From a virus (taxonomy: Duplodnaviria > Heunggongvirae > Uroviricota > Caudoviricetes), in the IMG/VR virus record IMGVR_UViG_2671181094_000002: DNA of 38,185 nt, one strand, 5' to 3'. Below the pieces are notes generated by a model. The model was not told the origin of the DNA and ran no database searches. It was given only the letters and a program-made list of their open reading frames with translations. Made by a program: the position numbers and the translations under genes. How positions within the stretch are numbered: the first letter of the stretch is position 1; each line of letters opens with the position of its first letter. Shown in pieces: positions 8,537-37,574 of the stretch.

Positions 8537-10495
8537 TTACGCCGTACATTTCACCAGACCGCGGTGATCAACTGGCGCGACACCGGCGTCAATACGCACT
8601 TTCGTTGTCACGCCATCCACACTGAAGCCCTCCATCTGATCAATATATGGCGTATCCACACCGTTGAGATAAGCCACTTCAATTGTATCGGAGCCTTTTG
8701 ACGCAGCCAGGTAGAAGGTGGTCTGGCTGTTATCATCAAGACGAGGCTCTGCAATAACGGTCGCAAAATCTTTCACCGGGTTAATAATACCGGCGTTAAT
8801 GTCAGCCCCCTTGACACTTGAGGAGCGAATGACCTGGTTAGCAACAGACTCCATCGCCGTCGGTACCAGTACGAACGCAGGACGAATATTCAGATGACGC
8901 TCCCCCTCTTTCTGAACGCGCATCAACTGGCGGGCTTTATCCAGCGATGCCACGTCCATTGCAGCGCTCTCCAGTACGTTTGCATGTTTCGCTTTATCGA
9001 ACAGACTTACATTATCTGTGGAGATTTTCGGGTTAGACGTCAGAATGGCATAAACCAGATCGGCAATAGTGGATTTCGCCGCACGGCCCAGCTTCATCGG
9101 GACATCGGTCAGCATATTCAGATCATCATTGATAATGGCCTGACGGGTGATACTGAACAGCTCGCCATAGGTCGCCAGTGCAATAGTGGCCTGTTTATCT
9201 CCGGTGGTGACGTATTTATATTCCGCCCCTTCACGCACCTGACGCAGAGCACTGAAGCCCCCCATACCCACACGATGGGCAATTTTAAAATCAGACAACT
9301 GACCTTTCCGCGTCCACTGTTCATAGGTTTCAGGGGCATCTTCCCAGCCCTGCAGAATGGCTTTGTTCGCAACATCCAGCAGAATATTACCGAAGTCAGA
9401 CGTACTGTGTGTGAACGCCGCACCGACCATCTGCATCGGGTTATAACTGGAAACCCCAATACCCCGTTCAGTCAGTGACATACGGGCATATTCACGCAGG
9501 GTCATCCCGTTGTAGACATTATCACGTTCGGTTTTTTCAAATCCGGCACGCGCCATCAGCGCCTGGCGGATCCCGTCCCCCACAAAATTACCGTTACCGG
9601 CATAAATATGAGCCGGGGTATTTTTATTGGATGGCGTGGACTCGCGCCCCATCTCGTTCAACAGCTTTTCGCGGGCCTGCTCCAGCGAACATTCAGGATC
9701 GGCAAGACACTGAGCCTGCAGCGTCTGATAACGCCCGCCAAACATGGCAAACAGATCATTAATACCGTTTACACGCGCTTTTTGCTCTGCCAGTACCTGC
9801 GCACGGATACTGTTTTCATCCACCACGGGTGCTGCTGCCTGCACTGGCGTCCGGGAGGCTGCAGGTTCATTATCCTGTACGCGTGGAGCACTGTTACGTG
9901 GCGGAGTAATCATGTTTCGAATGGATTCCGGCATCTTTTTAAATTCCTCTGTACGTTTTGACTGAATACATGCCATTGCCTTAACGGCTGGCGTCACCTG
10001 ATCAGCAAATCCCTGTGCCAGACATTCGGCACCGGACATCCAGGTCTCATCCGCCAGCATGGCAGCAATTTCATCGGTGGTTTTCCCGGTTTTCTGTGCA
10101 TAAGCGGGTAACAGAACAGCCTCAACCTTATCGAGCAGGTCGGCATAGGTGCGCATGTCCTCCGCATCACCGCCCGTAAAGCCAAATGGTTTATGAATCA
10201 TCATGAAGGTGTTTTCCGGCATAATGACCGGGTTTCCCACCATCGCAATGACCGACGCCATTGACGCCGCCACACCGTCGACATAAACGGTAATGGACGC
10301 ACCATGTGTTTTCAGTGCATTAAAAATGGCGATGCCTTCAAAGACATCGCCACCCGGTGAATTGATATGGAGATTAATGTGGGTGATATCGCCCAGTGCA
10401 TTCAGATCACTGATAAACTGCTTCGCCGTAACACCCCAGAAACCAATCTCGTCATAAATATAAATATCCGCGTCACTCTGGTGACCAGCCTGCAT
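8537..10495 (-). CDS. Prohead protease (ClpP/S49-like) - scaffold - major capsid protein encoded in a single ORF
   Basis: ORF track 8537..10756; probable start MQAGHQSDADIYIYDEIGFWG at 10495 just after portal stop; N-terminal region has ClpP/S49-like motifs (INSPGGDV, ASMASVIA), then Ala/Gln-rich linker, then about 350 aa capsid-like domain. Confidence 0.75.
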   Translation of the reverse strand: MQAGHQSDADIYIYDEIGFWGVTAKQFISDLNALGDITHINLHINSPGGDVFEGIAIFNALKTHGASITVYVDGVAASMASVIAMVGNPVIMPENTFMMIHKPFGFTGGDAEDMRTYADLLDKVEAVLLPAYAQKTGKTTDEIAAMLADETWMSGAECLAQGFADQVTPAVKAMACIQSKRTEEFKKMPESIRNMITPPRNSAPRVQDNEPAASRTPVQAAAPVVDENSIRAQVLAEQKARVNGINDLFAMFGGRYQTLQAQCLADPECSLEQAREKLLNEMGRESTPSNKNTPAHIYAGNGNFVGDGIRQALMARAGFEKTERDNVYNGMTLREYARMSLTERGIGVSSYNPMQMVGAAFTHSTSDFGNILLDVANKAILQGWEDAPETYEQWTRKGQLSDFKIAHRVGMGGFSALRQVREGAEYKYVTTGDKQATIALATYGELFSITRQAIINDDLNMLTDVPMKLGRAAKSTIADLVYAILTSNPKISTDNVSLFDKAKHANVLESAAMDVASLDKARQLMRVQKEGERHLNIRPAFVLVPTAMESVANQVIRSSSVKGADINAGIINPVKDFATVIAEPRLDDNSQTTFYLAASKGSDTIEVAYLNGVDTPYIDQMEGFSVDGVTTKVRIDAGVAPVDHRGLVKCTA

Positions 10496-10508
10496 CCTGA
10501 ACCAGGAA

Positions 10509-12089
10509 TTATTCTTCGGACTGGTTGTTGGTGTGCTGCGGCTCCTGTCGTTTCGTTGCGGCACTGCTGCCTCCTTTATCACTGGCCGGATCGGTATCAA
10601 ATACCAGATCCAGCTTGCGGTTTTCATCAATTTCGGCCTTGCGCCGACGTTTGACATCATCCGGATTACGACCACCAGCACGTACCCAGTCTGATTCTGT
10701 CGCCGCTCCACCACGAATCTGGATTTTCCAGGCCTCAGCCTCCTTAACAGGGTCAATCCACGGCATCACCGGTCCGGAATACACCGCGGTATACAGTGAA
10801 GAACGATCAAGATCGCGGGGTAGCCTGATAACACCGGATGCCACAGCCTGTTTCAGCCAGGCACGGTACATCGGGCGGGTGACGGCACCAATAAACCAGT
10901 CCTGCAGGATCAGGTAGCCATCAGTAGACTCAACCAGCTCCTGACGCTGGGCGCTGTAAGTGCCGTTATAGTTGCGCGCTGTACTGGAAAAACTCAGACG
11001 ACTGCCAGCCGCCACTGCACGCAACTGACCATTACGAAAAGTTTCAAGATTAGGATTGGGACGATCCGACTTCACCATTCCGATTTCTTCGCCGGGTTTC
11101 AGATCGTCGTAAATAATGCCTGGCTGAATGGTAAGCTCGCGTTCCTTATCCTTGCTGCCATTACCATCCGGTTCATAGCTCTGCCCGTCGCCTTTCCGGA
11201 TGTACATCCCCAGAGCAGCGGCGATCCTTGCTGCAGTCAGCTCAGAATCTTCATACTCTTTCAGAGCACTGAGGCGGATCAGCACACCGGACAACAAAGA
11301 CGTCCCGCGCATCTGGTGCAGACGGCGAACAAATTTAAGATGCAGCATTCGCTCTGCATCCACTTCTTTGGTTTCCATCTGCCGTCCGGATACAGGACGA
11401 CTTTTATACACCAGATATTTTTCGGGACGCCCCCAGTCATCAACAAACACGCCCTGATTCAGCCTGTTGCTCTCATCACTGGTCATGGGAATAAAGTCCG
11501 GCTCGAGTGCCTCCAGCCAGAAATGAACACCGGCAGAAGGCGTCAGGCTGTTTATGCGCCCGGAAACCATCTGGGCAAACACCTCACCATCGCGCAGCCA
11601 GGTACGCAGCATCAGACGTTCGAGCATCGGACGGGTAAACTGCCCGGTGACTTCCGGACTGACAGACCATTCACTCCATCGGGTGCGTATCTCCGCTGCC
11701 AGATCACGGGCAATGGCCCCATTGCGTAATACCGGATGTGGCTCGACAATAATCCCGTTTTTCCCCACCACCCGTTCTTCCAGCTTGTCAAATACACCAA
11801 TGACCAGATCGTGGTTGTTATCAAGGTAACGGGCCTGCTCACGTAACGACACGGCCCCGTACTGGCTTAACTGGTCGGCAGTTCGGTTCTCCCGTCGGGC
11901 TTTGTGTGTCCGCGTCGTTTTTACGGCCTCATAAGCCTGAATCACCGCACGGGAACGCAGCCTTGCCGCTTTCCATCCTGGTGAAAAAACGCCAATCACA
12001 TCATCAAGAATTGCCATCAGAACCTCGCCAGCCGGTACCCGGGATGCCCCCGTCGTCGTGTAATCAGAGCCGCAAGGCGGCGCTCCCAC
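10509..12089 (-). CDS. Portal protein
   Basis: 526-aa ORF immediately downstream of W and terminase, upstream of protease/capsid; size and position as lambda gpB; track start is a GTG, an internal ATG (MAILDDV) near 12017 is an alternative. Confidence 0.8.
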   Translation of the reverse strand: MGAPPCGSDYTTTGASRVPAGEVLMAILDDVIGVFSPGWKAARLRSRAVIQAYEAVKTTRTHKARRENRTADQLSQYGAVSLREQARYLDNNHDLVIGVFDKLEERVVGKNGIIVEPHPVLRNGAIARDLAAEIRTRWSEWSVSPEVTGQFTRPMLERLMLRTWLRDGEVFAQMVSGRINSLTPSAGVHFWLEALEPDFIPMTSDESNRLNQGVFVDDWGRPEKYLVYKSRPVSGRQMETKEVDAERMLHLKFVRRLHQMRGTSLLSGVLIRLSALKEYEDSELTAARIAAALGMYIRKGDGQSYEPDGNGSKDKERELTIQPGIIYDDLKPGEEIGMVKSDRPNPNLETFRNGQLRAVAAGSRLSFSSTARNYNGTYSAQRQELVESTDGYLILQDWFIGAVTRPMYRAWLKQAVASGVIRLPRDLDRSSLYTAVYSGPVMPWIDPVKEAEAWKIQIRGGAATESDWVRAGGRNPDDVKRRRKAEIDENRKLDLVFDTDPASDKGGSSAATKRQEPQHTNNQSEE

Positions 12090-14328: not shown

Positions 14329-14822
14329 TACTCCTCCTGCTGTAATTCCTCCTCATCATCCGCACCTGCTTCGGTCACCCGCAGGGCTATCTGATCGCGC
14401 AGATCATCAATAATGGACTGAACACGGCTCACAGCGGCAGGCTGCAGACCGCAGTCACGTTCCAGAATATCCGGTAATGTCTCCAGCACCTGCACGACCG
14501 CTTTTGCCCAGATGGCAAACTCCCGTCTGACATCACTGGCCGGAATGAGTTGTGCCGTTTCCTGCTCGAACTTAAGACGCTCACGTTCAGACTGATACCA
14601 GGCTTTGCGCTCATGCGCGTCCATTTCGCCTTCTGCAACCGGCGGTGGTAATGCCAGAAATGCCGACACAATATCAACCACCCGATAAAGCTTGAGGTTG
14701 CTTTCATGCCCCCCTGCAACGGGTAGATTTTGCAGCCTTGCCGCAGCAGTCTGGCGATGTACACCTGACAGTGCCGCCAGTTGACTGATATTCAGCGTCA
14801 GATTTTTTAACTCTCGATCCAT
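14328..14822 (-). CDS. Terminase small subunit (putative, not Nu1-like in sequence)
   Basis: 164-aa ORF immediately upstream of and overlapping terminase large subunit; N-terminal HTH-like segment LTLNISQLAALSGVHRQTAAARL; acidic C-terminus. Confidence 0.55.
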   Translation of the reverse strand: MDRELKNLTLNISQLAALSGVHRQTAAARLQNLPVAGGHESNLKLYRVVDIVSAFLALPPPVAEGEMDAHERKAWYQSERERLKFEQETAQLIPASDVRREFAIWAKAVVQVLETLPDILERDCGLQPAAVSRVQSIIDDLRDQIALRVTEAGADDEEELQQEE

Positions 14823-14925
14823 ACCCGCTCCAGAATGTTTTAAACATGCATCTTGCGAACAACTTTAGGCAAACGGTGTTAGTGATGAACAAAAAACAAT
14901 CAAAATCGACACCACAAAAATAAAA

Positions 14926-14953
14926 CTACTGTAATATCAATCTATTACAGTAG
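14926..14953. promoter_or_regulatory. Perfect inverted repeat ctactgtaata-N6-tattacagtag upstream of the packaging genes
   Basis: 11-bp arms, exact reverse complements, 6-bp spacer, about 100 bp upstream of the terminase small subunit start in an otherwise non-coding stretch. Confidence 0.4.
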
Positions 14954-15140
14954 TGGTGATGACGAATGAAATTTCAAAAACTAGCCTTTTTCCGCGACGC
15001 TCCCGCCCCGTGGCAGGCCACCCCACCGGGAGGACCCGTCAGCCTGACAGCTCTGACGAACGTCTGATACAACGCCTTGCATGAATGGCATCGGGATAAT
15101 CCAGAAAGGCATAGCATCGCGCCCACAAGAATCTGTGTAA

Positions 15141-15356
15141 GTGTCCTGTTTCTTCCACCCCCGCACAGGACTGGCGAGCATGAGGGACAAACCCGCGAAC
15201 CATAAACGCGGTAAAAACCCGGTGTGCATCGTTTTTGATTATTCCCGCACACTCTCGCAGAAGGAGTTCCCCGTCGGGCTACGGTCTCTGTTAATACGGG
15301 AATACGGCGACGATACAGCGCATGATGTGTCAGGCTTGAATACCTTTATCCGTTAA
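15141..15356 (+). CDS. Hypothetical small protein on opposite strand between lysis and packaging genes (position of lambda bor)
   Basis: 71-aa ORF (possible internal start MRDKPANHKRGKNPVCIVFDY...); followed 40 nt downstream by a plus-strand hairpin with T-run; no family recognised. Confidence 0.25.
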   Translation: MSCFFHPRTGLASMRDKPANHKRGKNPVCIVFDYSRTLSQKEFPVGLRSLLIREYGDDTAHDVSGLNTFIR

Positions 15357-15395
15357 AAGGGATATCAGTTAAGTTATCCCGTGTAGGGTATAAGC

Positions 15396-15425
15396 CATTA
15401 TCAAAGCCACTCTGTAGGGAGTGGC
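15396..15425 (+). terminator. Rho-independent terminator-like hairpin
   Basis: aagccactc-tgtaggg-gagtggctt stem-loop followed by ttttgtaat. Confidence 0.35.
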
Positions 15426-15637
15426 TTTTGTAATGGCAATAAAAAGCCCCGCGAATACGAGGCTAAATCCTGGTATTTGTAATGACTGGCTCTTATTTCA
15501 ACGCAGCCCCTTACCGCGCGCCAGATGCTCAACTTCAAGCATCAGCAATGAGATGTTTAATCTGGATTCACTCCAGAAGTGATCACCACCCTGTCTACAG
15601 AGCCAGATGTGAAGGATGATGAGTAAAATTATCGCTA

Positions 15638-16117
15638 TCATCGAAGGCATTGCGTCCTGATATATTCCTGAAGCGTTCTCAGTGCTGTCTGGTCTCTGAT
15701 GATTCCGTCCCGGATACCGAGAACGTTTCGTCCAGCAACTGGAGAGAGTTCGACGGTGGCATCATTGCCCATGCCGGAGGCGCTGGAGGTTTCGGCTGAG
15801 GATGGCACAGAGCATTTTCCTTTGACGAGCACCCGACCACCATTATCAAGCTTGCGCCGAAGAGCATCATTTTTAGCTTTCGCATCAGCTAACTCCTTCG
15901 TGTATTTAGCATCGAGTGCATCAGCAGAACGCTGGCGCTGCTGCATGTCAGTAATGGTGGCGGTCGCCTGCTTCAGCTCACTGACTTTTTTATCTCGCTG
16001 TTCTTTGTAGGCGATGGCGTTATCACGGTAATGATTGACCGCCCACGACAGGCAGACGATGATGCAGATAACCAGAGCGGAGATAATCGCGGTTACTCTG
16101 CTCATTGTTGCCCCCAC
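15638..16117 (-). CDS. Rz: Spanin inner-membrane subunit Rz (i-spanin)
   Basis: 159-aa ORF with N-terminal TM segment ([16 protein letters not shown]) and coiled-coil periplasmic region, directly after endolysin gene. Confidence 0.85.
15679..15885 (-). CDS. Rz1: Spanin outer-membrane lipoprotein Rz1 (o-spanin), embedded in +1 frame of Rz
   Basis: 68-aa ORF fully inside Rz; lipoprotein signal with lipobox MVVGC, proline-rich [11 protein letters not shown] as in Rz1. Confidence 0.8.
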
Positions 16118-16599
16118 AAACAGACTTCACGCTCAATCTCACGGCGAGTCATCAGTCCTTTCCATTGATTACCGCCAGCGTATGTCCAGCGCCGTAGCTG
16201 ATCACATGCGCCTTTAATATCACCCTGGTTTATTTTGCGAAGAAGCGTCGATGTTCTGAAATTGCCAGCACCCACGTTGTAGACGAACGAGTAAAGAGCG
16301 CCGCGCGTTGTTTCCGGTATATCGACTTTGATGTACCGGTTAATTTGTCTGGCGACAGTGGCAAGGTCTTTATTCAGGAGGGCTTTGCACTCTGCTTCGG
16401 TATACGTTTTACCGGGAATGATGTCTTTTCCTGTATGCCCGTAACATACAGTCCATACACCAACTATGTCTTTGTAAGGATTATGTCTCACACCTTCCAG
16501 ACCATCGTTACCACTTGGGCCAGTGATTAACACAGATGCTATAGCAATAGCCCCGCCACCAATAGCAGCAGCAACAGCTTTTCGTAATGATGGAGGCAT
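16102..16599 (-). CDS. R: SAR endolysin (phage 21 R-type lysozyme)
   Basis: 165-aa ORF; N-terminal Gly/Ala-rich signal-arrest-release segment [20 protein letters not shown] followed by lysozyme catalytic region (E...D...T pattern), like R21 / DLP12 RrrD. Confidence 0.9.
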
Positions 16600-16814
16600 T
16601 ATTCACCTCTCGCAGCCTTGCGCTTATCTTCTTTAATCTTGAAATAAAGGTTTGTCAGGTACGTCAGCAGGCCAAATACCAGGCTACCCAGCACACCTAT
16701 TGCTGCCCACTGTGAGGGCGTGACTTTATCGAGCAGCTGTAAAAACCAGTACCCGGCACTACCTGCTGAGGTGCCATAGGCGACACCCGTTGTTAACTTA
16801 TCCATGGATTTCAT
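16599..16814 (-). CDS. S: Pinholin S (phage 21 S-type) with dual-start motif
   Basis: 71-aa [29 protein letters not shown]... two TM segments; Met1 and Met4 dual start (holin/antiholin) as in S21 / DLP12 EssD. Confidence 0.9.
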
Positions 16815-17387
16815 AACCCCACCTCGCAGACAAAGCGGGTGTAAATTGAGGGAATACTACGAAACGTAACAGACTCGGAGTCAGTGAATAACTCAGGTAT
16901 TGGGTTATCAGCTAATATCGAGACTCAAAAAATGGAAAAACCCGCTCGACGGCGGGTTTAAGCTGTGTGACGAAGTAACCACTCTTAACAGCATAACCAA
17001 TTTTTTACGTACGTAAACCACTAAATGATATTTGCGAGAATGCTACCGAGTATTGAAAACACCACTACAAATACATAAGCAAATCTCAACAAATAACCAA
17101 CAAATAATTTCCAGCGTTACTTTTAGCCAATTTAAATTGAACCTTCAAATTATAGAGCGCTTATAAATAACAGCCATTAATATAAATTGGCTAATAGATT
17201 TATTTTTATTCAGCCAAGAGCCATGAATAGGATTCGATAGAAAAAAGTTCAGATAAAAATAGAGATCTACTTCACAAATTAAACGAGAAACCAAAACTTA
17301 CATCTTGAAATAATCACATTGATTAGATGAATATTTATCGCGCAGTGACATCATTTTTTAATAATAGTTCAAAAAAAAGGGCTCACG

Positions 17388-18470
17388 ATGAAAAAATTAA
17401 CAGTGGCAATTTCTGCTGTAGCTGCATCAGTACTGATGGCGATGTCTGCTCAGGCAGCTGAAATTTATAATAAAGACAGTAACAAGCTGGATCTGTACGG
17501 GAAAGTTAATGCTAAGCACTACTTCTCCTCTAATGATGCAGATGATGGTGATACTACTTATGCCCGTCTTGGCTTCAAAGGTGAAACCCAAATCAACGAT
17601 CAACTGACTGGTTTCGGTCAGTGGGAATATGAATTCAAAGGCAACCGCGCTGAATCTCAAGGTTCCTCCAAAGATAAAACCCGTCTTGCCTTCGCTGGCC
17701 TGAAATTCGGTGACTACGGCTCCATCGATTATGGCCGTAACTACGGTGTAGCATACGATATTGGTGCATGGACCGACGTTCTGCCAGAATTCGGTGGCGA
17801 TACCTGGACCCAAACAGATGTATTCATGACTGGTCGCACCACAGGTGTTGCAACTTATCGTAACAACGACTTCTTTGGTCTGGTTGATGGCCTGAACTTT
17901 GCAGCTCAGTATCAGGGCAAAAATGACCGAAAAGAAGTAACTGAAGCTAATGGCGATGGTTTCGGTTTCTCAACTACTTATGAGTATGAAGGATTCGGCG
18001 TGGGTGCAACCTATGCTAAATCTGATCGCACTAATAATCAGGTTATCTACGGTAACAACGGTCTGAATGCTTCTGGTCAAAATGCTGAAGTATGGGCAGC
18101 TGGTCTGAAATATGATGCGAACAACATCTATCTGGCCACCACCTATTCTGAAACCCAGAACATGACTGTTTTTGGTAATAACCATATTGCCAACAAAGCA
18201 CAAAACTTCGAAGCTGTTGCACAATATCAGTTCGACTTCGGCCTGCGTCCATCCGTTGCTTACCTGCATTCTAAAGGAAAAGACTTGGGTGTTTGGGGTG
18301 ATCAGGACCTGGTTGAATATGTTGATGTAGGTGCAACCTATTACTTCAACAAAAATATGTCCACTTTTGTTGACTACAAAATCAACCTGATTGATAAGAG
18401 CGATTTCACGAAAGCATCTGGCGTTGCTACCGATGATATCGTTGCTGTAGGTATGGTTTACCAGTTCTAA
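17388..18470 (+). CDS. nmpC: Outer membrane general porin, OmpC/NmpC/Lc family (prophage-borne)
   Basis: 360-aa ORF with signal peptide ...MAMSAQA|[16 protein letters not shown], porin signature and C-terminal VYQF; preceded by 570 bp AT-rich non-coding region and AAAAGGG SD; located between Q and S as nmpC in DLP12. Confidence 0.9.
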
Positions 18471-18632
18471 TTTGATTACTAAAAGATATGTTGTGGGAGG
18501 CTTTGCCTCCCCAACATATAAGTGGCTCCCTCAAGCCACTTCCTTTAGAAGCACAACCTTGCTTCTAACTATACAAACCTTCTGTTATATATTACCCTTT
18601 ATTTTTGGGGGCGTTTCAACGCCCCATTTTTA
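18471..18632 (+). ncRNA. Structured porin 3' UTR; candidate IpeX-like small RNA
   Basis: Three consecutive hairpins (long near-palindrome 18486-18519; aagtggct/agccactt; gaagca/tgcttc) ending in an intrinsic terminator; IpeX sRNA is encoded immediately downstream of nmpC in DLP12. Confidence 0.3.
18606..18632 (+). terminator. Rho-independent terminator of the porin gene
   Basis: gggggcg-tttcaa-cgcccc stem-loop followed by atttttaat. Confidence 0.6.
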
Positions 18633-18658
18633 ATAACTTTTAGTAAATAATTGGCGTA

Positions 18659-19057
18659 TTAATTAGAGTTATTAACAACGATATCCATCTCTAACCGGAT
18701 ATCTAATGCCATTAACATCCCTTCAATTATGCCCTCAGCCTTTTGTAACCTTTTCCCGATATAACCATCAGAGCAGCAATGCTTACCTGCCAGTGACATG
18801 AATGTCATACCGACTACATAATAATCTACTAATAAATCGTGCAAATCGCTGTTGTTCTTTTTCAGACGGGCCATGCACCCGCAAATGATCATCGCGTCAT
18901 CGTCACAACATTGCGGGCGAGATTTTACTTTTGAAGGAATTAATCCCTTAAAACCGGCGGCAATGGACGACCAGGTCACATCTTCATGATTATTAGCCGC
19001 CCACGCTCCCCAACGCTCAAGAACCATCTGAATATCACGCATCAACTTACTCCACAA
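18659..19057 (-). CDS. Q: Late gene antiterminator Q (DLP12 QuuD / phage 82-21 type, not lambda Q type)
   Basis: 132-aa [29 protein letters not shown]... with Cys cluster ([16 protein letters not shown]), upstream of lysis cassette and downstream of rusA/ylcG. Confidence 0.85.
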
Positions 19058-19127
19058 AAATCAGACCAGAACGCCAATTACAAGCAAAAATCAACAAAAC
19101 AGTATTAGTTGATTGTTATCTCTGACT

Positions 19128-19268
19128 TCATACTCCTGCTCCTGTCAGGGTTTTGGCGTAATTCTTCAGTATTCGGTAATCGGTCAAAACAGAACCGGGG
19201 AAACGATATAAGCGCAGATGCCCCCAGCGGTGGCGAAGAAGTTCTGCCATATAAAACTCAAACATCAT
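19128..19268 (-). CDS. ylcG: YlcG-like small protein
   Basis: 46-aa [49 protein letters not shown] read by hand; start overlaps rusA stop (ATGA); below ORF-track length cutoff. Confidence 0.6.
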
Positions 19269-19627
19269 TCATTCCCCATTTCGGTGATGGTCAGTTCCAG
19301 CCTCCCACCTTTGGTAACAGGCATCTTCACAACGCGGTAATCAACGACCTGAGCATCATCCAGCCAGAAACCTGCTTTAGTGAGTGCGTCAAAAGCGGCT
19401 TTTTGCAGATTATCCAGGTCACGGCGACGGCGATCCGGCATGTGGCACTCAATGCGGATTTTCACAGGCATAGCCAGGCCGATATCCAGCATTGCGTTTT
19501 TAATGATTCGGGCGACGTTATCGCGGTATGCCTGCCCCTCTGCGCTGACGTGCGTGCGCCCGCGATTATGGCGGTAATAGCGGTTATTGCTCGGCGGCCA
19601 GGGTAGTGTGATGTGGTAAGTATTCAC
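19265..19627 (-). CDS. rusA: Holliday junction resolvase RusA
   Basis: 120-aa ORF (GTG start) ...[14 protein letters not shown]...[28 protein letters not shown], classic RusA motifs. Confidence 0.9.
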
Positions 19628-19750
19628 GCCTTAATTACCCCCTCTTTCAGCCAGATAACCTGCGTTCTCGCCATACCTTCCAGCGCGCATTCTTTTGCAT
19701 ATGCAGCATCGACTTGCTTGGCATGCCCTTTACCGGCAATCTTCTGTATG
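19624..19750 (-). pseudogene. ybcO-like (DUF1364) gene remnant, C-terminal part only
   Basis: Minus-strand frame reads ...[38 protein letters not shown]-stop, whose stop overlaps rusA start (GTGA); frame is closed by two stop codons just upstream, no start and no Cys-rich N-terminal half present. Confidence 0.5.
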
Positions 19751-23717: not shown

Positions 23718-24732
<1,015 letters not shown>

Positions 24733-24850: not shown

Positions 24851-25756
24851 ATGCCAAATTTACCGATGGGCGGATCGCAGGGTGAATTACCCTTAGTACC
24901 TACAGTAGAAGTTGTTGCTGATGGCATTCCTATGGGGGTGCTTAATGATGGAACCCCTTATCTAACTCTTTACGGTTTAGCCAAATTATGTGGCATAGAT
25001 GAAGCACCTCTTCGAATGTTTACATCTAACTGGGAGACTGAAAAAAATAAGCCAAGAGGACAAAAAGTAGCTGCATACTTAGCTGAGAAAGGATTTAACA
25101 ACGTTGACCGACTGTATACCCGCGTCATAAATAGCTCAAACGTTGAAACACATGCTTATCCTGACTATGTTTGTATGGCTATCCTCCGTTACTACGCTCT
25201 AGATGCCACCAATTTTGATAGGTCAGTCGCAATAGGTAATTTTGTTCGCTTGGCTGAGTACACGCTTAAGCGAATGATTTATGAAAAGTCAAATTACAAC
25301 CCAAATGCTTCAATAGATATCTCATTCGAGAACTATAGAGCAAGGATTAAGCTAAACGATCAGATACCGACAACTCATTTTGCAGTATTCAGAGAGATAG
25401 CTGACATTGCCATGAACCTGATCGGAGGAGGATTCCCAATGGATGACACCACATCTTTGGATGGAAGTGTTGGAATTCACTGGGGAAAGTATTGGACAGC
25501 TAATGGGCTATCTGAGAAATTCGGGGAAAGGGTGCAGTACCCACATCTATTCCCCGAAAATTACAGGCAGTCAGCTGCAAATAAGCATATAACAGCTTGG
25601 ATTTATCCTATTGAGGCACTTGGCGTGTTCAGAAAATGGCTACACGATAATTACGCAATGGAAAAACTGCCAAATTACCTTGGGAACAAAAAGATTAGTA
25701 ATGCCTCCGAGCTATTAGAGTCGATAAAAAAACCAGCACTCCCAAATAAGCATTGA
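24851..25756 (+). CDS. Hypothetical 301-aa protein with KilA-N/Bro-N-like N-terminal domain, occupying the rexAB position downstream of cI
   Basis: ORF in same orientation as cI, 118 bp downstream, followed by intrinsic terminator; AT-rich codon usage; N-terminal segment ...TPYLTLYGLAKLCGIDEAPLRMF...HAYPDYVCMAILRYYALD resembles KilA-N-type DNA-binding folds; not RexA/RexB. Confidence 0.6.
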   Translation: MPNLPMGGSQGELPLVPTVEVVADGIPMGVLNDGTPYLTLYGLAKLCGIDEAPLRMFTSNWETEKNKPRGQKVAAYLAEKGFNNVDRLYTRVINSSNVETHAYPDYVCMAILRYYALDATNFDRSVAIGNFVRLAEYTLKRMIYEKSNYNPNASIDISFENYRARIKLNDQIPTTHFAVFREIADIAMNLIGGGFPMDDTTSLDGSVGIHWGKYWTANGLSEKFGERVQYPHLFPENYRQSAANKHITAWIYPIEALGVFRKWLHDNYAMEKLPNYLGNKKISNASELLESIKKPALPNKH

Positions 25757-26512: not shown

Positions 26513-27067
26513 TTACTTAGATATTGGCCTTGGCTTTATCTCAATATTATATGGATCATAGCTGGCAACTAATTCAGTCCAGTAAATATCCTCAATAGGG
26601 AATAATATATGCTTCCCGTTCCATCGGGAAAAAGTTTTGTTCAACACACCAAGCTCAATCAACTCACTAATGTATGGGAATTGTTTTGATGTAACCACAT
26701 ACTTCCTGCCTTCATTAAGGGCTGCGCACAAAACCATAGATTGCTCTTCTGTAAGGTTTTGAATTACTGATCGCACTTTATCGTTTTGCATCTTAATGCG
26801 TTTTCTTAGCTTAAATCGCTTATATCTGGCGCTGGCAATAGCTGATAATCGATGCACATTAATTGCTAGCGAAAATGCAAGAGCAAAGACGAAAACATGC
26901 CACACATGAGGAATACCGATTCTCTCATTAACATATTCAGGCCAGTTATCTGGGCTTAAAAGCAGAAGTCCAACCCAGATAACGATCATATACATGGTTC
27001 TCTCCAGAGGTTCATTACTGAACACTCGTCCGAGAATAACGAGTGGATCCATTTCTATACTCATCAA
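26513..27067 (-). CDS. sieB: Superinfection exclusion protein B
   Basis: 184-aa membrane protein ORF MMSIEMDPLVILGRVFSNEPLERTMYMIVIWVGLLLLSPDNWPEY..., opposite to pL transcription as lambda sieB. Confidence 0.85.
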   Translation of the reverse strand: MMSIEMDPLVILGRVFSNEPLERTMYMIVIWVGLLLLSPDNWPEYVNERIGIPHVWHVFVFALAFSLAINVHRLSAIASARYKRFKLRKRIKMQNDKVRSVIQNLTEEQSMVLCAALNEGRKYVVTSKQFPYISELIELGVLNKTFSRWNGKHILFPIEDIYWTELVASYDPYNIEIKPRPISK

Positions 27068-32418: not shown

Positions 32419-32637
32419 ATGTACTTGACACTTCAGGAGTGGAACGCACGCCAGCGACGCCCAAGAAGCCTTGAAACAGTTCGTCGATGGGTACGCGAGT
32501 GCAGGATATTCCCTCCTCCGGTTAAGGATGGAAGAGAGTATCTGTTCCACGAATCAGCGGTAAAGGTTGACTTAAATCGACCAGTAACAGGTAGCCTTTT
32601 GAAGAGGATCAGAAATGGGAAGAAGGCGAAGTCATGA
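32419..32637 (+). CDS. xis: Excisionase Xis
   Basis: 72-aa ORF MYLTLQEWNARQRRPRSLETVRRWVRECRIFPPPVKDGREYLFHESAVKVDLNRPVTGSLLKRIRNGKKAKS. Confidence 0.95.
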   Translation: MYLTLQEWNARQRRPRSLETVRRWVRECRIFPPPVKDGREYLFHESAVKVDLNRPVTGSLLKRIRNGKKAKS

Positions 32638-33685
32638 GCGCCGGGATTTACCCCCTAACCTTTATATAAGAAACAATGGATATTACTGCTACAGGGACCC
32701 AAGGACGGGTAAAGAGTTTGGATTAGGCAGAGACAGGCGAATCGCAATCACTGAAGCCATACAGGCCAACATTGAGTTATTTTCAGGACACAAACACAAG
32801 CCTCTGACAGCGAGAATCAACAGTGATAATTCCGTTACGTTACATTCATGGCTTGATCGCTACGAAAAAATCCTGGCCAGCAGAGGAATCAAGCAGAAGA
32901 CACTCATAAATTACATGAGCAAAATTAAAGCAATAAGGAGGGGTCTGCCTGATGCTCCACTTGAAGACATCACCACAAAAGAAATTGCGACAATGCTCAA
33001 TGGATACATAGACGAGGGCAAGGCGGCGTCAGCCAAGTTAATCAGATCAACACTGAGCGATGCATTCCGAGAGGCAATAGCTGAAGGCCATATAACAACA
33101 AACCCTGTCGCTGCCACTCGCGCAGCAAAATCAGAGGTAAGGAGATCAAGACTTACGGCTGACGAATACCTGAAAATTTATCAAGCAGCAGAATCATCAC
33201 CATGTTGGCTCAGACTTGCAATGGAACTGGCTGTTGTTACCGGGCAACGAGTTGGTGATTTATGCGAAATGAAGTGGTCTGATATCGTAGATGGATATCT
33301 TTATGTCGAGCAAAGCAAAACAGGCGTAAAAATTGCCATCCCAACAACATTGCATGTTGATGCTCTCGGGATATCAATGAAGGAAACACTTGATAAATGC
33401 AAAGAGATTCTTGGCGGAGAAACCATAATTGCATCTACTCGTCGTGAACCGCTTTCATCCGGCACAGTATCAAGGTATTTTATGCGCGCACGAAAAGCAT
33501 CAGGTCTTTCCTTCGAAGGGGATCCGCCTACCTTTCACGAGTTGCGCAGTTTGTCTGCAAGACTCTATGAGAAGCAGATAAGCGATAAGTTTGCTCAACA
33601 TCTTCTCGGGCATAAGTCGGACACCATGGCATCACAGTATCGTGATGACAGAGGCAGGGAGTGGGACAAAATTGAAATCAAATAA
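32615..33685 (+). CDS. int: Integrase Int (tyrosine recombinase)
   Basis: 356-aa ORF MGRRRSHERRDLPPNLYIRNNGYYCYRDPRTGKEFGLGRDRRIAITEAIQANIELFSGHKHK...; overlaps xis 3' end as in lambda. Confidence 0.95.
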   Translation: MGRRRSHERRDLPPNLYIRNNGYYCYRDPRTGKEFGLGRDRRIAITEAIQANIELFSGHKHKPLTARINSDNSVTLHSWLDRYEKILASRGIKQKTLINYMSKIKAIRRGLPDAPLEDITTKEIATMLNGYIDEGKAASAKLIRSTLSDAFREAIAEGHITTNPVAATRAAKSEVRRSRLTADEYLKIYQAAESSPCWLRLAMELAVVTGQRVGDLCEMKWSDIVDGYLYVEQSKTGVKIAIPTTLHVDALGISMKETLDKCKEILGGETIIASTRREPLSSGTVSRYFMRARKASGLSFEGDPPTFHELRSLSARLYEKQISDKFAQHLLGHKSDTMASQYRDDRGREWDKIEIK

Positions 33686-33790
33686 TGATTTTATTTTGAC
33701 TGATAGTGACCTGTTCGTTGCAACAAATTGATAAGCAATGCTTTTTTATAATGCCAACTTAGTATAAAAAAGCAGGCTTCAACGGATTCA
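33686..33790. other. attL: phage P' arm, 15-bp core (ttagtataaaaaagc, 33759-33773) and bacterial arm
   Basis: Sequence downstream of int matches my recollection of the lambda attP P' arm (reverse complement) up to the core gcttttttatactaa, then switches to chromosomal sequence (cagg...). Confidence 0.8.
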
Positions 33791-33819
33791 TTTTTCTATT
33801 TCATAGCCCGGAGCAACCT

Positions 33820-35103
33820 GTGAACACATTTTCAGTTTCCCGTCTGGCGCTGGCATTGGCTTTTGGCGTGACGCTGACCGCCTGTAGCTCAACCCCGCCC
33901 GATCAACGTCCTTCTGATCAAACCGCGCCTGGTACCTCTTCTCGCCCGATTCTGTCGGCAAAAGAAGCGCAGAATTTCGATGCTCAACACTATTTTGCAT
34001 CCCTGACACCAGGTGCTGCAGCGTGGAATCCTTCCCCGATTACCCTGCCTGCGCAACCTGACTTTGTTGTCGGCCCGGCGGGCACTCAAGGTGTAACGCA
34101 TACCACGATTCAGGCGGCGGTAGATGCGGCAATTATCAAGCGTACCAACAAGCGCCAGTATATTGCCGTGATGCCTGGTGAGTATCAGGGAACGGTATAT
34201 GTCCCTGCCGCTCCGGGTGGAATTACTCTGTACGGTACAGGTGAAAAACCGATTGATGTGAAGATTGGGCTTTCCCTTGATGGTGGCATGAGCCCTGCCG
34301 ACTGGCGTCACGACGTCAACCCGCGCGGCAAATATATGCCAGGTAAACCAGCGTGGTATATGTACGATAGCTGCCAGAGCAAACGCAGCGACAGTATCGG
34401 TGTTCTCTGCTCTGCGGTCTTCTGGTCACAAAACAATGGCCTGCAACTGCAAAATCTGACCATCGAAAACACGCTGGGCGATAGCGTAGATGCAGGTAAC
34501 CATCCGGCGGTGGCACTGCGTACTGATGGTGACCAGGTACAGATTAACAACGTTAACATTCTCGGTCGTCAGAACACCTTCTTTGTCACCAACAGCGGTG
34601 TGCAGAACCGTCTGGAAACGAATCGTCAGCCGCGTACGCTGGTGACCAACAGCTACATTGAAGGGGATGTGGATATCGTTTCTGGTCGCGGCGCAGTGGT
34701 GTTCGATAACACCGAATTCCGCGTGGTGAACTCACGTACTCAGCAAGAAGCGTATGTGTTTGCACCGGCTACGCTGTCCAACATTTACTACGGTTTCCTC
34801 GCCGTAAACAGCCGTTTCAATGCTTTCGGTGATGGTGTGGCGCAACTGGGCCGCTCGCTGGATGTTGATGCCAATACCAACGGTCAGGTGGTGATCCGTG
34901 ATAGCGCCATCAACGAAGGTTTTAACACGGCTAAACCGTGGGCCGATGCGGTGATCTCTAATCGTCCGTTTGCGGGTAATACCGGCAGCGTAGATGATAA
35001 CGACGAAATACAGCGCAATCTGAATGACACTAACTACAACCGCATGTGGGAATACAATAACCGCGGCGTGGGTAGTAAAGTGGTTGCAGAGGCGAAGAAG
35101 TAA
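33820..35103 (+). CDS. ybhC: YbhC, pectinesterase-family outer-membrane lipoprotein (chromosomal gene flanking the lambda attachment site)
   Basis: 427-aa ORF with lipoprotein signal (LTAC) and pectin-lyase-fold region; recognised as the gene adjacent to attB-lambda on the gal side. Confidence 0.85.
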   Translation: MNTFSVSRLALALAFGVTLTACSSTPPDQRPSDQTAPGTSSRPILSAKEAQNFDAQHYFASLTPGAAAWNPSPITLPAQPDFVVGPAGTQGVTHTTIQAAVDAAIIKRTNKRQYIAVMPGEYQGTVYVPAAPGGITLYGTGEKPIDVKIGLSLDGGMSPADWRHDVNPRGKYMPGKPAWYMYDSCQSKRSDSIGVLCSAVFWSQNNGLQLQNLTIENTLGDSVDAGNHPAVALRTDGDQVQINNVNILGRQNTFFVTNSGVQNRLETNRQPRTLVTNSYIEGDVDIVSGRGAVVFDNTEFRVVNSRTQQEAYVFAPATLSNIYYGFLAVNSRFNAFGDGVAQLGRSLDVDANTNGQVVIRDSAINEGFNTAKPWADAVISNRPFAGNTGSVDDNDEIQRNLNDTNYNRMWEYNNRGVGSKVVAEAKK

Positions 35104-35336
<233 letters not shown>

Positions 35337-37574
35337 TTACATCTGACGGTTTTTATTGAAGTTAATCAAACTACCCGCCTTGATAATCTCGCGCTCTTCA
35401 GCAGTCAGACTTTCCATATAGAGCGTAATTTCCGTTACCGGCGCATCTTCATGGATCACATAACCTTTAAACGTCGTACCCGGATTATCCAGCGCCGCTT
35501 TAATGCCAGGGATGTAAATGTAATCCCCCACTTCAAAGGTTGGCACTTCCGCCATCTGCAGCGGTAACATCCCCCAGTTGATGACGTTAGAACGGTAGCG
35601 TTTAGTCGCGTACTCTTCGGCAATATTCGCCAGACCGCCAATCACACGCTGGCAGCTCGCCGCCTGTTCACGCGCAGAACCATCGCCTGGTTTCACCGCA
35701 TATACCATGCTGCCAATTTCAGTTTGCAGCGGATCAATATGCTCCTGACCAGCAATCTGCTTAATGCGCGCAAACACCTCTGTCAGCTCGCTGACATTCC
35801 CCGCCAGACGCTGATTTTCCAGCTCAGCAGTCGCTTTACTTCTGCCAACATAACCGGGATCGCGGCGTGACAGGGTAAACTCCGCCAGACCAATCGGATT
35901 TGAACGATAAGAAGAGGTTTCACCGGAAGGAATCAGTTCGTCGGTGGTGGTCACTTCGTCGAGGATCTTCGAGCACACTTTCAGGACGATATTGTCAGTC
36001 AGCGCACCCAATTCCGGCCAGTCTTTAATGTTCGGTCCGTAAATCAGCGGTTGCTGAGTTGCCCCTTTCACAAAGCCCTGATAAACACGGTTTTTATACG
36101 GCGTTACATCGAAGGCGTACTCCGGCACGTTGTCCCAGCAATCAAGTTCGCTGGCAGAGGTTAAATAGCCACCGTTTGCCGCAGTCGCAGCGATAGAACG
36201 AGCGTCCATCAACGCCACCGCTGACATCTGCCCATTAGCTGGCTTAGAGCCTTCGCGGTTCGGGAAGTTGCGCGTGGTGTGGCGAATACTTAATCCGTTG
36301 TTGATTGGCGTATCGCCCGCGCCAAAGCATGGGCCGCAGAACGCGGTTCTGATGATTGCGCCTGCGCCAATCAAATCTGCTACCACACCTTTTTTGGCGA
36401 GATCCATAAACACCGGCTGTGATGACGGGTAAACTGCCAGCGAGAAGGTGTCATTGCCACAGGATTGACCGCGCAGTGCATTCGCCGCCGCGATGACGTT
36501 TTCGTAGTTACCGCCAGAACAGCCCGCGATAATCCCCTGCTGCACTTTCAGGCGACCATTTTCCACTTTATCCAGCAGCGAGAGTTTGGCTTTACCGTGC
36601 GCCACGCGTTCGGACTCAATTTCAATCTCACGCAGAATGTCGGTCAGGTTCTGGTTCAGTGTGTCGATTTCATACACGTTGCTCGGGTGGAACGGCAGCG
36701 CAATCATTGGTTTGATGGCGCTTAAATCAACGCTGATGCAGCCATCGTAGTACGCCATCGGTTGAGGGTTAAGCTGGCAGTAATCCTGGCCGCGACCGTG
36801 CAGCGCCAGCCAGTTATGGACTTCTTCATCGGTTTGCCAGACAGAACTTAAACAGGTCGTTTCAGTGGTCATAACGTCAACGCTGTTACGGAAATCGGTA
36901 GAGAGCGCAGCAACACCGGGACCTACGAATTCCATCACTTTGTTTTTGACGTAGCCGTTTTTGAACACGGCACCGATGATAGCCAGCGCCACATCCTGCG
37001 GCCCCACATACGGCGCTGGTTTTCCGGTCAGATGCACCGCAACAACTCCCGGATAGTCGATATCCCAGGTGTCATTAAGCAGCTGTTTTACCAACTCACC
37101 GCCGCCCTCACCGACTGCCATTGTCCCTAATGCACCGTAACGGGTGTGGCTGTCTGACCCGAGGATCATTTTGCCGCCGCCTGCCATCATCTCACGCATA
37201 TATTGATGGATGACCGCAATATGCGGAGGCACAAAAATACCGCCATAACGCTGAGCTGCCGATAAACCAAAAACATGGTCATCACCGTTAATGGTGCCGC
37301 CGACGGCGCAGAGTGAGTTATGGCAGTTGGTCAGCACATACGGCAGCGGGAAACGTTCCATTCCGGACGCTTTAGCGGTCTGTACAATACCAACAAAGGT
37401 AATATCGTGAGAGGCTAATGAATCAAACTTAATTTTAAGTTTATCCATATTTCCGGACGTATTATGAGAAGAGAGAATAGACCAGGCAATAGTGCCTTTT
37501 TTGGCTTCTTCTTTTTTAATTTCGCCGGTGAAATGTTCTTCGGCAATTATTTCGTTATTACTGGCGAGAAACAC
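35337..37574 (-). CDS. ybhJ: YbhJ, aconitase-family protein (5' end abuts or is disrupted by IS1)
   Basis: 745-aa ORF with aconitase-family features (GSDSHT, Cys ligands CGPCFGAG); track start is a GTG 10 nt from the IS1 end and the frame continues into IS1. Confidence 0.75.

Follow-up and report, generated by a model that had tools for sequence, protein, structure and literature searches.

Porin genes of the NmpC/Lc type, carried by prophages, have been textbook material since the 1980s, and Lc, the porin of phage PA-2, causes lysogenic conversion. In Salmonella the related chromosomal gene ompD is activated by CRP and repressed by acid. The promoter of nmpC in the K-12 prophage DLP12 (PnmpC) is contained in the 199 bp that precede the ATG (−199 to −1) and its transcript starts at a G, as mapped by 5′ RACE; CRP activates it at two sites, and OmpR, IHF and MprA repress it (PMC11677980). 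The K-12 nmpC/essD intergenic region has been classed as a 'promoter island': it is bound by H-NS in all ChIP studies and its output is suppressed (PMC3661553, Table 1). Expression of nmpC responds to temperature and pH (PMC12890032, PMC8544407, PMC10746267), and K-12 nmpC behaves like ompD (PMC10746267). Finally, a 167-nt sRNA, IpeX, is processed from the porin transcript (PMC12197685).

Here we compare with these systems a porin locus in a 38,185-nucleotide stretch of viral DNA (IMG/VR record IMGVR_UViG_2671181094_000002), referred to below as the window. The analysis established whether the gene is intact, which family it belongs to, what surrounds it, how its parts relate to known elements and how common it is in the population; the features are collected in Table 1. 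A preliminary description had proposed a complete OmpC/NmpC-family porin with a signal peptide and a C-terminal VYQF, and this is borne out. The gene runs intact from ATG to TAA, and the reading-frame check revealed neither frameshift nor internal stop, which removes the possibility of a frameshift that had been raised at the time. Residues 29-360 of the product span model positions 1-337 of 337 of Pfam Porin_1 (E 3.1e-152, profile search), the score against the NCBIfam OmpC subfamily is 515 bits (cutoff 484), and the closest solved structures in a PDB sequence comparison are OmpK37 and OmpC (E 1e-135); given the Porin_1 and OmpK37/OmpC values, chance can be excluded for the assignment. The 23-aa signal peptide, cleaved before AEIYNK, is identical to the sig_peptide annotated for PA-2 lc. 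A PEFGG motif, characteristic of loop 3, occurs at residue 133, and the C-terminus (...VGMVYQF) ends in the terminal Phe of general porins. The mature protein aligns end-to-end with the solved 16-stranded porins OmpK37, OmpC, PhoE and OmpF (E 1e-135 to 1e-119), and its predicted form is that of a 16-stranded trimeric general porin. A single-sequence AlphaFold model was unusable (pLDDT 29.5), so the β-barrel assignment rests on sequence homology.

Table 1. Features of the porin locus and its neighbours (positions in the window)
Feature	Position	Strand	Remarks
Rz, downstream of S and R	15638..16117		lysis cassette
R, downstream of S	16102..16599		lysis cassette
Holin/antiholin (pinholin) S, class II, phage 21-type	16599..16814	-	first lysis-cassette gene; PF04971 E 2e-35
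Lysis-operon leader, hairpin over S ribosome-binding site	16815..16927	-	fold; 2.4% diversity; 16-nt indel in PA-2
Predicted intrinsic terminator, phage strand	16928..16959	-	hairpin 16959-16938, then TTCCATTTTTT; terminator scan and fold
Predicted pR′ initial transcribed region	16960..16989	-	+1 about 16983; qut/pause-like element TTACTTCG; putative function
CRP-like half-site	16963-16983		overlaps predicted qut region; annotated in PA-2 J02580
pR′ homologue (933W/VT2-Sakai type)	16990..17017	-	−35 TTTACG 17017-17012, 16-nt spacer, −10 TATGCT 16995-16990
AT-rich (29.7% GC) hypervariable spacer between divergent promoters	17018..17255	.	in K-12, most of the H-NS-bound 'promoter island'
Porin promoter-proximal region, 132 bp	17256..17387	+	CRP site, OmpR-like box, PnmpC
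CRP site	17259-17279	+	annotated in PA-2 J02580, identical here
OmpR-like box TTACATCTTGAAA	17298-17310	+	overlaps −35
PnmpC −35 TTGAAA	17306-17311	+	
PnmpC −10	about 17330-17336	+	probable position
Published DLP12 lysis-cassette start and upstream GAACTA-N16-TCACT	17339..17370, start about 17339	-	overlaps porin 5′ UTR on other strand
Porin transcription start, G	about 17340/17342	+	probable exact position
A8 tract	17371-17378	+	
Shine-Dalgarno AAGGG	17377-17381	+	
Porin gene, NmpC/Lc family, allele class B	17388..18470	+	360-aa precursor; signal peptide 17388-17456, mature 17457-18467
Porin 3′ UTR, equivalent of DLP12 IpeX sRNA region	18471..18632	+	162 nt past stop
Terminator GGGGCGTTTCAACGCCCC-ATTTTT	18608-18625	+	terminator scan
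Late antiterminator Q, QuuD/82/933W type, 127 aa	18659..19042	-	PF06530 E 8.5e-54

From the coordinates and strands of Q, the porin gene and S (annotated as essD or class II holin in relatives), the porin lies between Q and the holin gene on the opposite strand, as first described. The arrangement had been likened to those of DLP12 nmpC and PA-2 lc, and the layout matches both. In DLP12 (and in phage 434B) nmpC sits between quuD and essD in the same orientation with a gap of equal length, and identity to DLP12-type sequence is 99.1% for S, 98.3% for the gap and 99.5% for Q, with 87.3% for the porin. The two prophages differ in attachment site, the proteins differ in length (365 aa in DLP12, 360 aa here), and the window copy lacks the IS5 that follows codon 346 in K-12 and 434B; the gene is indeed intact rather than IS-disrupted. 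PA-2 Lc shares the identical signal peptide and has its lysis genes on the other strand, and the region upstream of lc is about 96% identical to the window, including both annotated CRP sites. Unlike the window, PA-2 has an allele of class A, as does NmpC, and a 16-nt insertion in the S leader. The closest relatives outside Escherichia are OmpD of Salmonella and its Citrobacter and Enterobacter orthologues (76-80% aa identity), which are chromosomal and have another signal peptide and a 5′ UTR about 28 nt longer.

Several hallmarks of the NmpC/Lc cassette are present: a position on the strand opposite Q and S-R-Rz, the PnmpC region with its CRP sites, and an IpeX region at the 3′ end. We consider it very probable that the element is this known prophage porin cassette, which is common and has been studied. 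It also has the character of a moron. Similarity of Q to other Q genes ends past ...LEMD (position 18683), and each of four phages compared has a different sequence after that point; in other phages the junction is either empty or occupied by a Blc lipocalin gene or by a different gene on the reverse strand. The porin gene has its own promoter and terminator (PnmpC and 18608-18625) and is present or absent among similar phages; GC content is 29-44%, compared with 50% for the window. In all likelihood a lambda-like prophage carries here, from ∼17020 to 18682, a self-contained moron of ∼1.66 kb, a lysogenic-conversion porin cassette of the NmpC/Lc type.

The protein is not a simple copy of NmpC or Lc. 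It is colinear with PA-2 Lc and with NmpC as reconstructed, minus IS5, from the DLP12-type copy of phage 434B, but amino acid identity is 90.4% to each, predicted loops L4, L5, L6 and L8 differ, and there are two indels; identity to the porin of phage ev099 is 99.7%. Against NmpC, dS is 0.026 for codons 1-118, over which the protein is identical, and 0.94 thereafter. The substitutions and indels fall into four or five short clusters, which coincide with gaps in the OmpK37 alignment; the differences from NmpC/Lc lie almost entirely in predicted surface loops L4-L8. Judged from these comparisons, the window porin constitutes a separate allele class, shared with ev099: a variant of the same gene rather than a member of another family. 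A dN/dS of 0.08 indicates purifying selection on the protein.

The window allele was assembled by recombination near codon 118. All four combinations of spacer haplotype and porin allele occur, and 1,043 E. coli genome records contain a match of 95% identity or more to the variable 3′ segment. In a search for its donor across 80 genomes of other species, none, at 76-79%, came nearer to it than one allele does to another. The loop alleles carried on an almost identical scaffold number at least three and are deeply diverged, which amounts to a natural experiment on selection upon phage-borne surface proteins.

Upstream of the porin gene, the preliminary description recorded a 570-bp AT-rich non-coding region. 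The gap (16815..17387) is non-coding, measures 573 bp and has a GC content of 34.6%; the window as a whole has 49.8%, and among its segments of 573 bp the gap ranks within the bottom 0.8%. It is nevertheless composite: the 205 bp from 16815 to 17019 have a GC content of 43.9%, and only 17020-17387 is AT-rich (29.3% GC, near the minimum for its length in the 38 kb, lowest 0.2%). The distal third belongs to the late/lysis operon on the other strand, and the 573 bp should not be counted as a simple porin leader. Three small ORFs (17032-17166 (+), 17145-17294 (−) and 17327-17461 (+)) were considered as genes and rejected, since stops or frameshifts interrupt them in related modules.

The promoter-proximal 132 bp are almost invariant, with a mean pairwise difference of 2.0% among eight modules. 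The CRP site and −35 are common to the porin and to chromosomal ompD of Citrobacter, Salmonella and Enterobacter, which argues that the porin promoter is ancestral. By placement of the mapped start G, the porin 5′ UTR would be only about 46-48 nt long. It had been suggested that a long leader carries OmpR/H-NS-type regulation; control of this kind is documented for the near-identical K-12 region, but 'leader' is a misnomer, and the main activator, CRP, went unmentioned. Control by CRP, OmpR, IHF and H-NS is already on record for the K-12 sequence, which is 98% identical, and the regulators, start site and H-NS binding would be expected to hold for the window copy as they do in K-12. The CRP sites are called from the annotation of PA-2, published work and sequence conservation, not from a motif scan, which showed no enrichment over the whole window (10 matches, 19.6 expected). 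Likewise, a scan for consensus σ70 promoters returned nothing in either intergenic region, PnmpC and pR′ being non-consensus and below its threshold.

Between this promoter and the lysis side lies the spacer 17018..17255, in which the mean pairwise difference rises to 10.2%, as against 1-2% on both flanks (eight modules). It contains no conserved ORF and has no homology to the regions upstream of chromosomal ompD.

Beyond the spacer, a block of ∼82 bp (16936-17018), directed toward S, has 77-78% identity with the sequence labelled 'putative late promoter' in the annotation of AP000422 (VT2-Sakai) and KR781488 (Ss-VASD). The homology extends through promoter, qut and terminator of a characterised pR′/qut belonging to the same Q family; the window Q is 79% identical to VT2-Sakai Q at the amino acid level. 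With the pR′ of Stx phages 933W, VT2-Sakai and H-19B (the source of StxS) the block has in common the −35 TTTACG, the spacing, TAAGAGTGGTTAC and the hairpin stem. The element TTACTTCG aligns with the annotated 'putative Q-utilization' sequence TTACATTG of VT2-Sakai. The terminator, which precedes the start codon of S by about 114 nt, is homologous to the first annotated terminator after VT2-Sakai pR′: the stems are kept and the loops differ. Such a block occurs once in the whole window.

In Stx phages pR′ overlaps the 3′ end of Q, whereas in the window the block neither adjoins nor overlaps Q: a distance of 1.66 kb, taken up by the reverse-oriented porin cassette, separates the two, and what comes about 170 nt after the block is S rather than tRNAs and stx. 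A tRNA scan of the whole window gave none, so the tRNAs that follow pR′ in Stx phages are absent, as is the StxS-forming part (+173 to +258). Homology to other Q genes breaks off at 18683 and returns, in the form of the pR′ block, at ∼17020. In PhiR40_1 the block is kept behind a different reverse-strand cargo gene, and phage records deposited as complete with a named host (the PhiR series, Turner and Kati) have the same layout. We consider it fairly likely that the porin cassette lies between Q and Q's own late promoter, with 16928-17017 (−) acting as the Q-loading site for S-R-Rz. If Q does load there, late transcription would not cross the porin gene.

The classical lambda layout offers a different picture, in which a Q-dependent late promoter lies right after Q (∼18590-18650, −), its transcript runs antisense through the porin gene and the gap, and 16928-17017 is an inactive relic. 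Lambda and the Stx phages are arranged in that way, with pR′ overlapping the end of Q in the latter; the gap between Q and the porin gene holds several hairpins, one of them followed by CTTTT on the − strand; and the −10 of the pR′ homologue (TATGCT) is weaker than that of VT2-Sakai and its pause-like TACTTC lacks the final T of VT2-Sakai TACATT, both of which would suit a relic. Yet 18471-18658 contains nothing like the cognate pR′/qut of the Q family and no promoter-like site was found there, the break in Q homology leads from 18683 directly to the pR′ block, the block is retained in PhiR40_1 with its other cargo gene, and it varies tenfold less than the spacer next to it (1.0% vs 10.2%, eight modules). 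We regard this layout as decidedly unlikely. A specific candidate directly after Q (TTGAAA...TAATAT with a TATAGT pause, ∼18575-18625, −) was dropped, having no homology to the cognate pR′, and a literature search for its sequence was empty. A supposed remnant of the Q 3′ end beside the pR′ block (17020-17090) was also set aside: its similarity to VT2-Sakai is roughly 40% by eye, near chance.

A further start for the lysis genes has been published. PMC7918800 describes a DLP12 reporter fragment extending from −121 to +650, numbered from the start site of Rueggeberg 2015. Its primers map to 17460 (−) and about 16690 in the window, and from these positions the lysis +1 falls at about 17339, which differs from the pR′ block and is the only published DLP12 lysis-cassette start that could be mapped. 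Upstream of it GAACTA-N16-TCACT, identical in all eight modules, looks like a σE-type promoter. It is possible, if rather unlikely, that the lysis genes are driven mainly from here, so that most of the AT-rich gap is a lysis 5′ leader and Q acts at the 16938-16959 terminator. The primer-derived +1 and the invariance of the upstream sequence are consistent with such an arrangement, and the fragment responds to pH and osmolarity in the reporter (PMC7918800). These responses are, however, not assignable, since the fragment takes in PnmpC and the H-NS island as well as the pR′ block. Q-type antiterminators (lambda and phage 82, as generally understood) load at a σ70-dependent promoter-proximal pause, not onto a σE transcript 380 nt downstream, and the presumed leader would be hypervariable from 17255 to 17018. 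Because a promoter at ∼17339 is compatible with pR′, it is better seen as a complement than as a rival to Q loading at 16928-17017. Results from the reporter fragments of DLP12 lysis-cassette studies are harder to interpret because these carry the porin promoter along with the H-NS island and a pR′ homologue.

On the other side of the porin gene, 18471..18632 comprises three strong hairpins and the terminator, and 18468-18640 folds at −58.5 kcal/mol (z = −8.1). Like IpeX of DLP12, this 3′ UTR directly follows the porin stop on the porin strand, and the stop-to-terminator distance of 162 nt compares with the 167 nt of IpeX; unlike DLP12 IpeX, the window copy can come from an uninterrupted porin transcript. 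The gap 18471-18658 is 94.7% identical to DLP12, and diversity of the 3′ UTR among the eight modules is 3.1%, mostly in loops. An Rfam scan of 14800-19700 (E up to 1) returned neither IpeX nor another family; a sub-threshold Trp-leader match was produced by the 16938-16959 terminator hairpin and was discarded. The IpeX-type 3′ UTR does not figure in the preliminary description.

Taken together with what is known from K-12, these features suggest how the cassette may work. In the lysogen, cAMP-CRP bound about 72 bp upstream would activate the σ70 promoter PnmpC (start ∼17340), with modulation by OmpR, IHF and H-NS on the AT-rich DNA and higher expression at 37°C and neutral pH. The transcript would comprise the porin gene and the structured 3′ UTR. 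The precursor would be exported via Sec, lose its 23-aa signal peptide and insert into the outer membrane as a 16-stranded trimer, and the 3′ UTR would yield an IpeX-type sRNA that lowers OmpC and OmpF. With a new porin gained and OmpC and OmpF lowered, the lysogen would partly swap its porins, altering permeability and the receptors for phages and colicins.

H-NS could hold the window copy largely silent. Taken to its extreme, this would make the porin a quiescent passenger, intact but H-NS-silenced, with the lysogen unaffected. The title of a published study calls nmpC of E. coli B and K-12 quiescent, and upstream of the gene lies a promoter island that is bound by H-NS and whose output is suppressed (PMC3661553). 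K-12 PnmpC is nonetheless strong enough to account for the only detectable ins5A mRNA (PMC11677980), nmpC belongs to the genes with the strongest induction at 37°C, the porin has been seen as protein in CFT073 (PMC12890032, PMC8544407), and a dN/dS of 0.08 speaks for purifying selection on the protein. A wholly silent passenger is highly unlikely.

A more integrated model, which we think unlikely as a whole, would have the cassette split Q from its late promoter such that PnmpC (+), the σE-type promoter at ∼17339 (−) and the Q-responsive pR′ at 16990-17017 (−) share one H-NS-bound gap of 573 bp, with a CRP half-site on the pR′ pause/qut element. Carbon source, temperature, pH and envelope stress might then jointly set the porin swap and the readiness for lysis and late expression, and recombination at the invariant promoter and first 118 codons might shuffle the deeply diverged loop alleles among prophages.

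Whatever its regulation, intact copies of the cassette can alter antibiotic permeability and sensitivity to phages and colicins, which is relevant to phage therapy and resistance work, and automatic annotation as 'porin OmpC' or 'OmpD' conceals a phage cargo gene with its own putative sRNA. Finding the cassette is in itself not news, as it is a textbook element that nearly every second complete E. coli genome contains: of 5,426 such genomes, 2,396 have 80% or more of the stretch from Q to S (16599-19057), and so do 36 phage records. In IMG/VR there are 460 matches, and the best 80 of the 460 are all at least 98% identical.

The preliminary description placed a complete porin gene between the antiterminator gene Q and the holin gene S, on the opposite strand and behind a long AT-rich non-coding region. 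That observation was correct, and exact to the base: Porin_1 (Pfam) covers the plus-strand ORF with the whole model matched (E 3.1e-152), the protein scores above the cutoff of the OmpC subfamily (NCBIfam), its residues 1-23 are the signal peptide annotated for the Lc porin of phage PA-2, a PEFGG motif lies at residue 133, the C-terminus is VYQF, and Q and S lie where described. The nearest solved structures (OmpK37, OmpC, PhoE and OmpF) match over the whole mature protein (E 1e-135 to 1e-119). No conserved ORF was found in the 573-bp gap between S and the porin gene.

Features of the Q-porin-S region and lysis genes, with diversity as mean pairwise difference across eight such modules
Feature	Position	Strand	Diversity	Remark
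Rz	15638..16117	-		ORF list
Endolysin R	16102..16599	-		ORF list
Holin S	16599..16814	-	1.2%	Pfam P21 holin family
S leader			2.4%	
Gap	16815..17387			
Predicted terminator	16938-16959	-		
Predicted pR'	16990-17017	-		predicted +1 near 16983
Stretch with pR' and terminator	16938-17017		1.0%	
Spacer	17018-17255		10.2%	
Promoter-proximal 132 bp	17256-17387		2.0%	
CRP site	17259-17279			annotated in PA-2; within the 132 bp
TTACATCTTGAAA	17298-17310			overlaps TTGAAA -35; within the 132 bp
Porin ORF	17388..18470	+		ATG to TAA, 360 aa; ORF list
Porin codons 1-118			2.2%	
Porin beyond codon 118			10.5%	
Porin 3' UTR			3.1%	
Q	18659..19042	-	1.3%	127 aa from ATG; Pfam Phage_antitermQ

The earlier interpretation was right as well: the porin region is the known NmpC/Lc cassette, a well-known and very common element. 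In the cryptic prophage DLP12 of E. coli K-12 the order is quuD, reverse-strand IS5-disrupted nmpC, a 572-bp gap and essD-rrrD-rzpD; the same DLP12-type region is present in phage 434B. Identity of the window to this region is 99.1% in S, 98.3% in the gap, 99.5% in Q, 94.7% between porin and Q and 87.3% in the porin gene, and the PA-2 lc record (J02580) is ~96% identical across the gap. Of 5,426 complete E. coli genomes, 2,396 contain at least 80% of the stretch from Q to S (16599-19057); three of these match it at 100% identity and label the gene 'porin OmpC'. Among phages, 36 records have it (ev243, the PhiR series, Turner and Kati among them), and IMG/VR adds 460 related stretches, the best 80 of which are at least 98% identical. 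A 100%-identical module lies in a prophage at the argU/DLP12 site in NZ_CP063487. The window has a lambda-type integrase gene and, after it, host genes of pectinesterase-like and aconitase-family type (32615-37574), which places its prophage elsewhere; these neighbours suggest the lambda attB region. Prophages at different attachment sites thus share the cassette.

The gap (34.6% GC) is composite, a modest refinement of the earlier account: the AT-rich label holds for 17020-17387 (29.3% GC, close to the lowest of any equal-length stretch in the window) and fails for 16815-17019 (43.9%). A search with the gap alone matched 16936-17018 to the Q-gene ends of ~300 Stx and related phages. In the Stx phage VT2-Sakai the matched stretch is annotated 'putative late promoter' (pR'), 'putative Q-utilization' (qut) and terminator; the alignment shows conservation of TTTACG (-35), of the spacing, of TAAGAGTGGTTAC and of the hairpin stems, while the loops differ. 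Relative to the predicted +1, the pause-like element is placed as the +25 pause known for phage 82 would be.

Q of the window is 79% identical to that of VT2-Sakai up to ...LEMD, beyond which four phages carry four unrelated sequences. VT2-Sakai and Ss-VASD go straight on into pR', the window has the porin cassette, 1H12 (locus L006) carries a Blc lipocalin gene on the reverse strand, and PhiR40_1 (locus L168) has a hypothetical gene, likewise on the reverse strand, ahead of the pR' block. A second copy of the pR' block was not found in the window. Together with the junction comparison, this makes it probable that the cassette (17020-18682, 1.66 kb) was inserted between Q and the late promoter belonging to it; this likely displacement of pR' is a modest refinement made here. 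The codon after ...LEMD (18683) is a recurrent junction, and each cargo state gives Q another short C-terminal tail.

A different start has been published for the lysis cassette. PMC7918800 uses a '-121 to +650' fragment of the DLP12 cassette, after Rueggeberg 2015. Its primers map to 17460 (minus strand) and ~16690, which puts the published +1 at ~17339 (minus strand), elsewhere than pR' and overlapping the porin 5' UTR. GAACTA-N16-TCACT precedes this start and resembles a sigmaE promoter. Both minus-strand promoters can coexist.

On the porin side, we take TTACATCTTGAAA to be the core of the ompC C1 OmpR box, a lead rather than a test. The CRP site and -35 recur at chromosomal ompD orthologues (76-80% amino acid identity) in Citrobacter, Salmonella arizonae and Enterobacter; the distal spacer and signal peptide do not. 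In K-12 the porin promoter PnmpC falls inside the 199 bp before the ATG, and by 5' RACE its transcript begins with a G; CRP activates it through two operators, OmpR, IHF and MprA repress it, and it is strong enough for IS5 transposase transcription (PMC11677980). The K-12 nmpC/essD gap is a 'promoter island', H-NS-bound in all ChIP data sets (PMC3661553). The OmpR/H-NS-type regulation proposed earlier was therefore right, being documented for the K-12 sequence (PMC11677980, PMC3661553) and already known; the principal activator is CRP. Expression of nmpC is strongly up at 37 C versus 23 C, the porin has been detected at the protein level in CFT073 (PMC8544407, PMC12890032), and nmpC falls ~64-fold at pH 4.4 alongside CRP-regulon genes (PMC10746267). 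An A8 homopolymer (17371-17378) is located downstream of the porin transcription start and ahead of the ribosome-binding site. DLP12 and phage 2G7b have A7 instead, which puts an upstream ATG at 17327 in frame and accounts for the longer CDS annotated in 2G7b.

Alignment of nine porin proteins gave three classes: A (NmpC, Lc, PhiR26_1, Turner and PhiR29_1, each of 365 aa, NmpC being rebuilt without IS5 and its CTAA duplication), B (window and ev099, 360 aa) and C (2G7b); an E. albertii copy has the class A loop pattern. The window porin is 90.4% identical to both NmpC and Lc. Most copies, those of the window and NmpC included, do not differ over the first ~150 residues; differences are concentrated in short stretches coinciding with indels relative to OmpK37, which the known OmpF/OmpC topology predicts to be external loops L4, L5, L6 and L8. 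Between window and NmpC, dS is 0.026 over codons 1-118 and 0.94 over the remainder; this contrast, with a dN/dS of 0.08, indicates an old, purified divergence recombined onto a young scaffold. Among sampled chromosomal ompD genes of other genera there was no closer donor of the variable part, and 1,043 E. coli genome records match the allele-specific 3' part at 95% or more. All four combinations of spacer haplotype and porin allele occur, which shows that recombination has taken place inside the invariant block of promoter and 5' coding sequence. The mosaic loop allele is a further modest refinement.

The 162 nt from the porin stop codon to the T-run behind the 18608-18625 hairpin fold, at -58.5 kcal/mol (z = -8.1), into four strong hairpins, with variation among modules mostly confined to loops. 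This 3' UTR occupies the place of IpeX, again a modest refinement. IpeX is a 167-nt DLP12 sRNA that is processed from the porin transcript and lowers OmpC/OmpF (PMC12197685, PMC5069750, PMC3617542, PMC3333887). An uninterrupted gene would yield the porin along with IpeX, and joint production would bring about a porin swap. Such a swap has long been described for PA-2 lysogens.

Besides the porin, the prophage has several cargo genes that protect the host: a BstA abortive-infection gene (24851-25756, plus strand; phrog_6287 E 5e-135, PADLOC BstA E 4e-106) directly after the cI-like repressor (24019-24732), and a SieB superinfection-exclusion gene (26513-27067, minus strand) beside an N-like antiterminator. 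The spanin gene Rz shows indels and only ~70% identity to that of DLP12, against 93-99% for the adjoining R and S, and this is a further mosaic boundary inside the lysis cassette. From Rz to the terminase small-subunit gene, 815 bp (14823-15637) lack a long ORF and swing from 36% to 60% GC; relatives have bor, ylcI and nuclease genes, or a cos region, there. Finally, ClpP-type protease and major capsid protein domains share a single 739-aa ORF (8537-10756, minus strand); this fusion of prohead protease and capsid differs from the lambda-type head genes of the NZ_CP063487 prophage.
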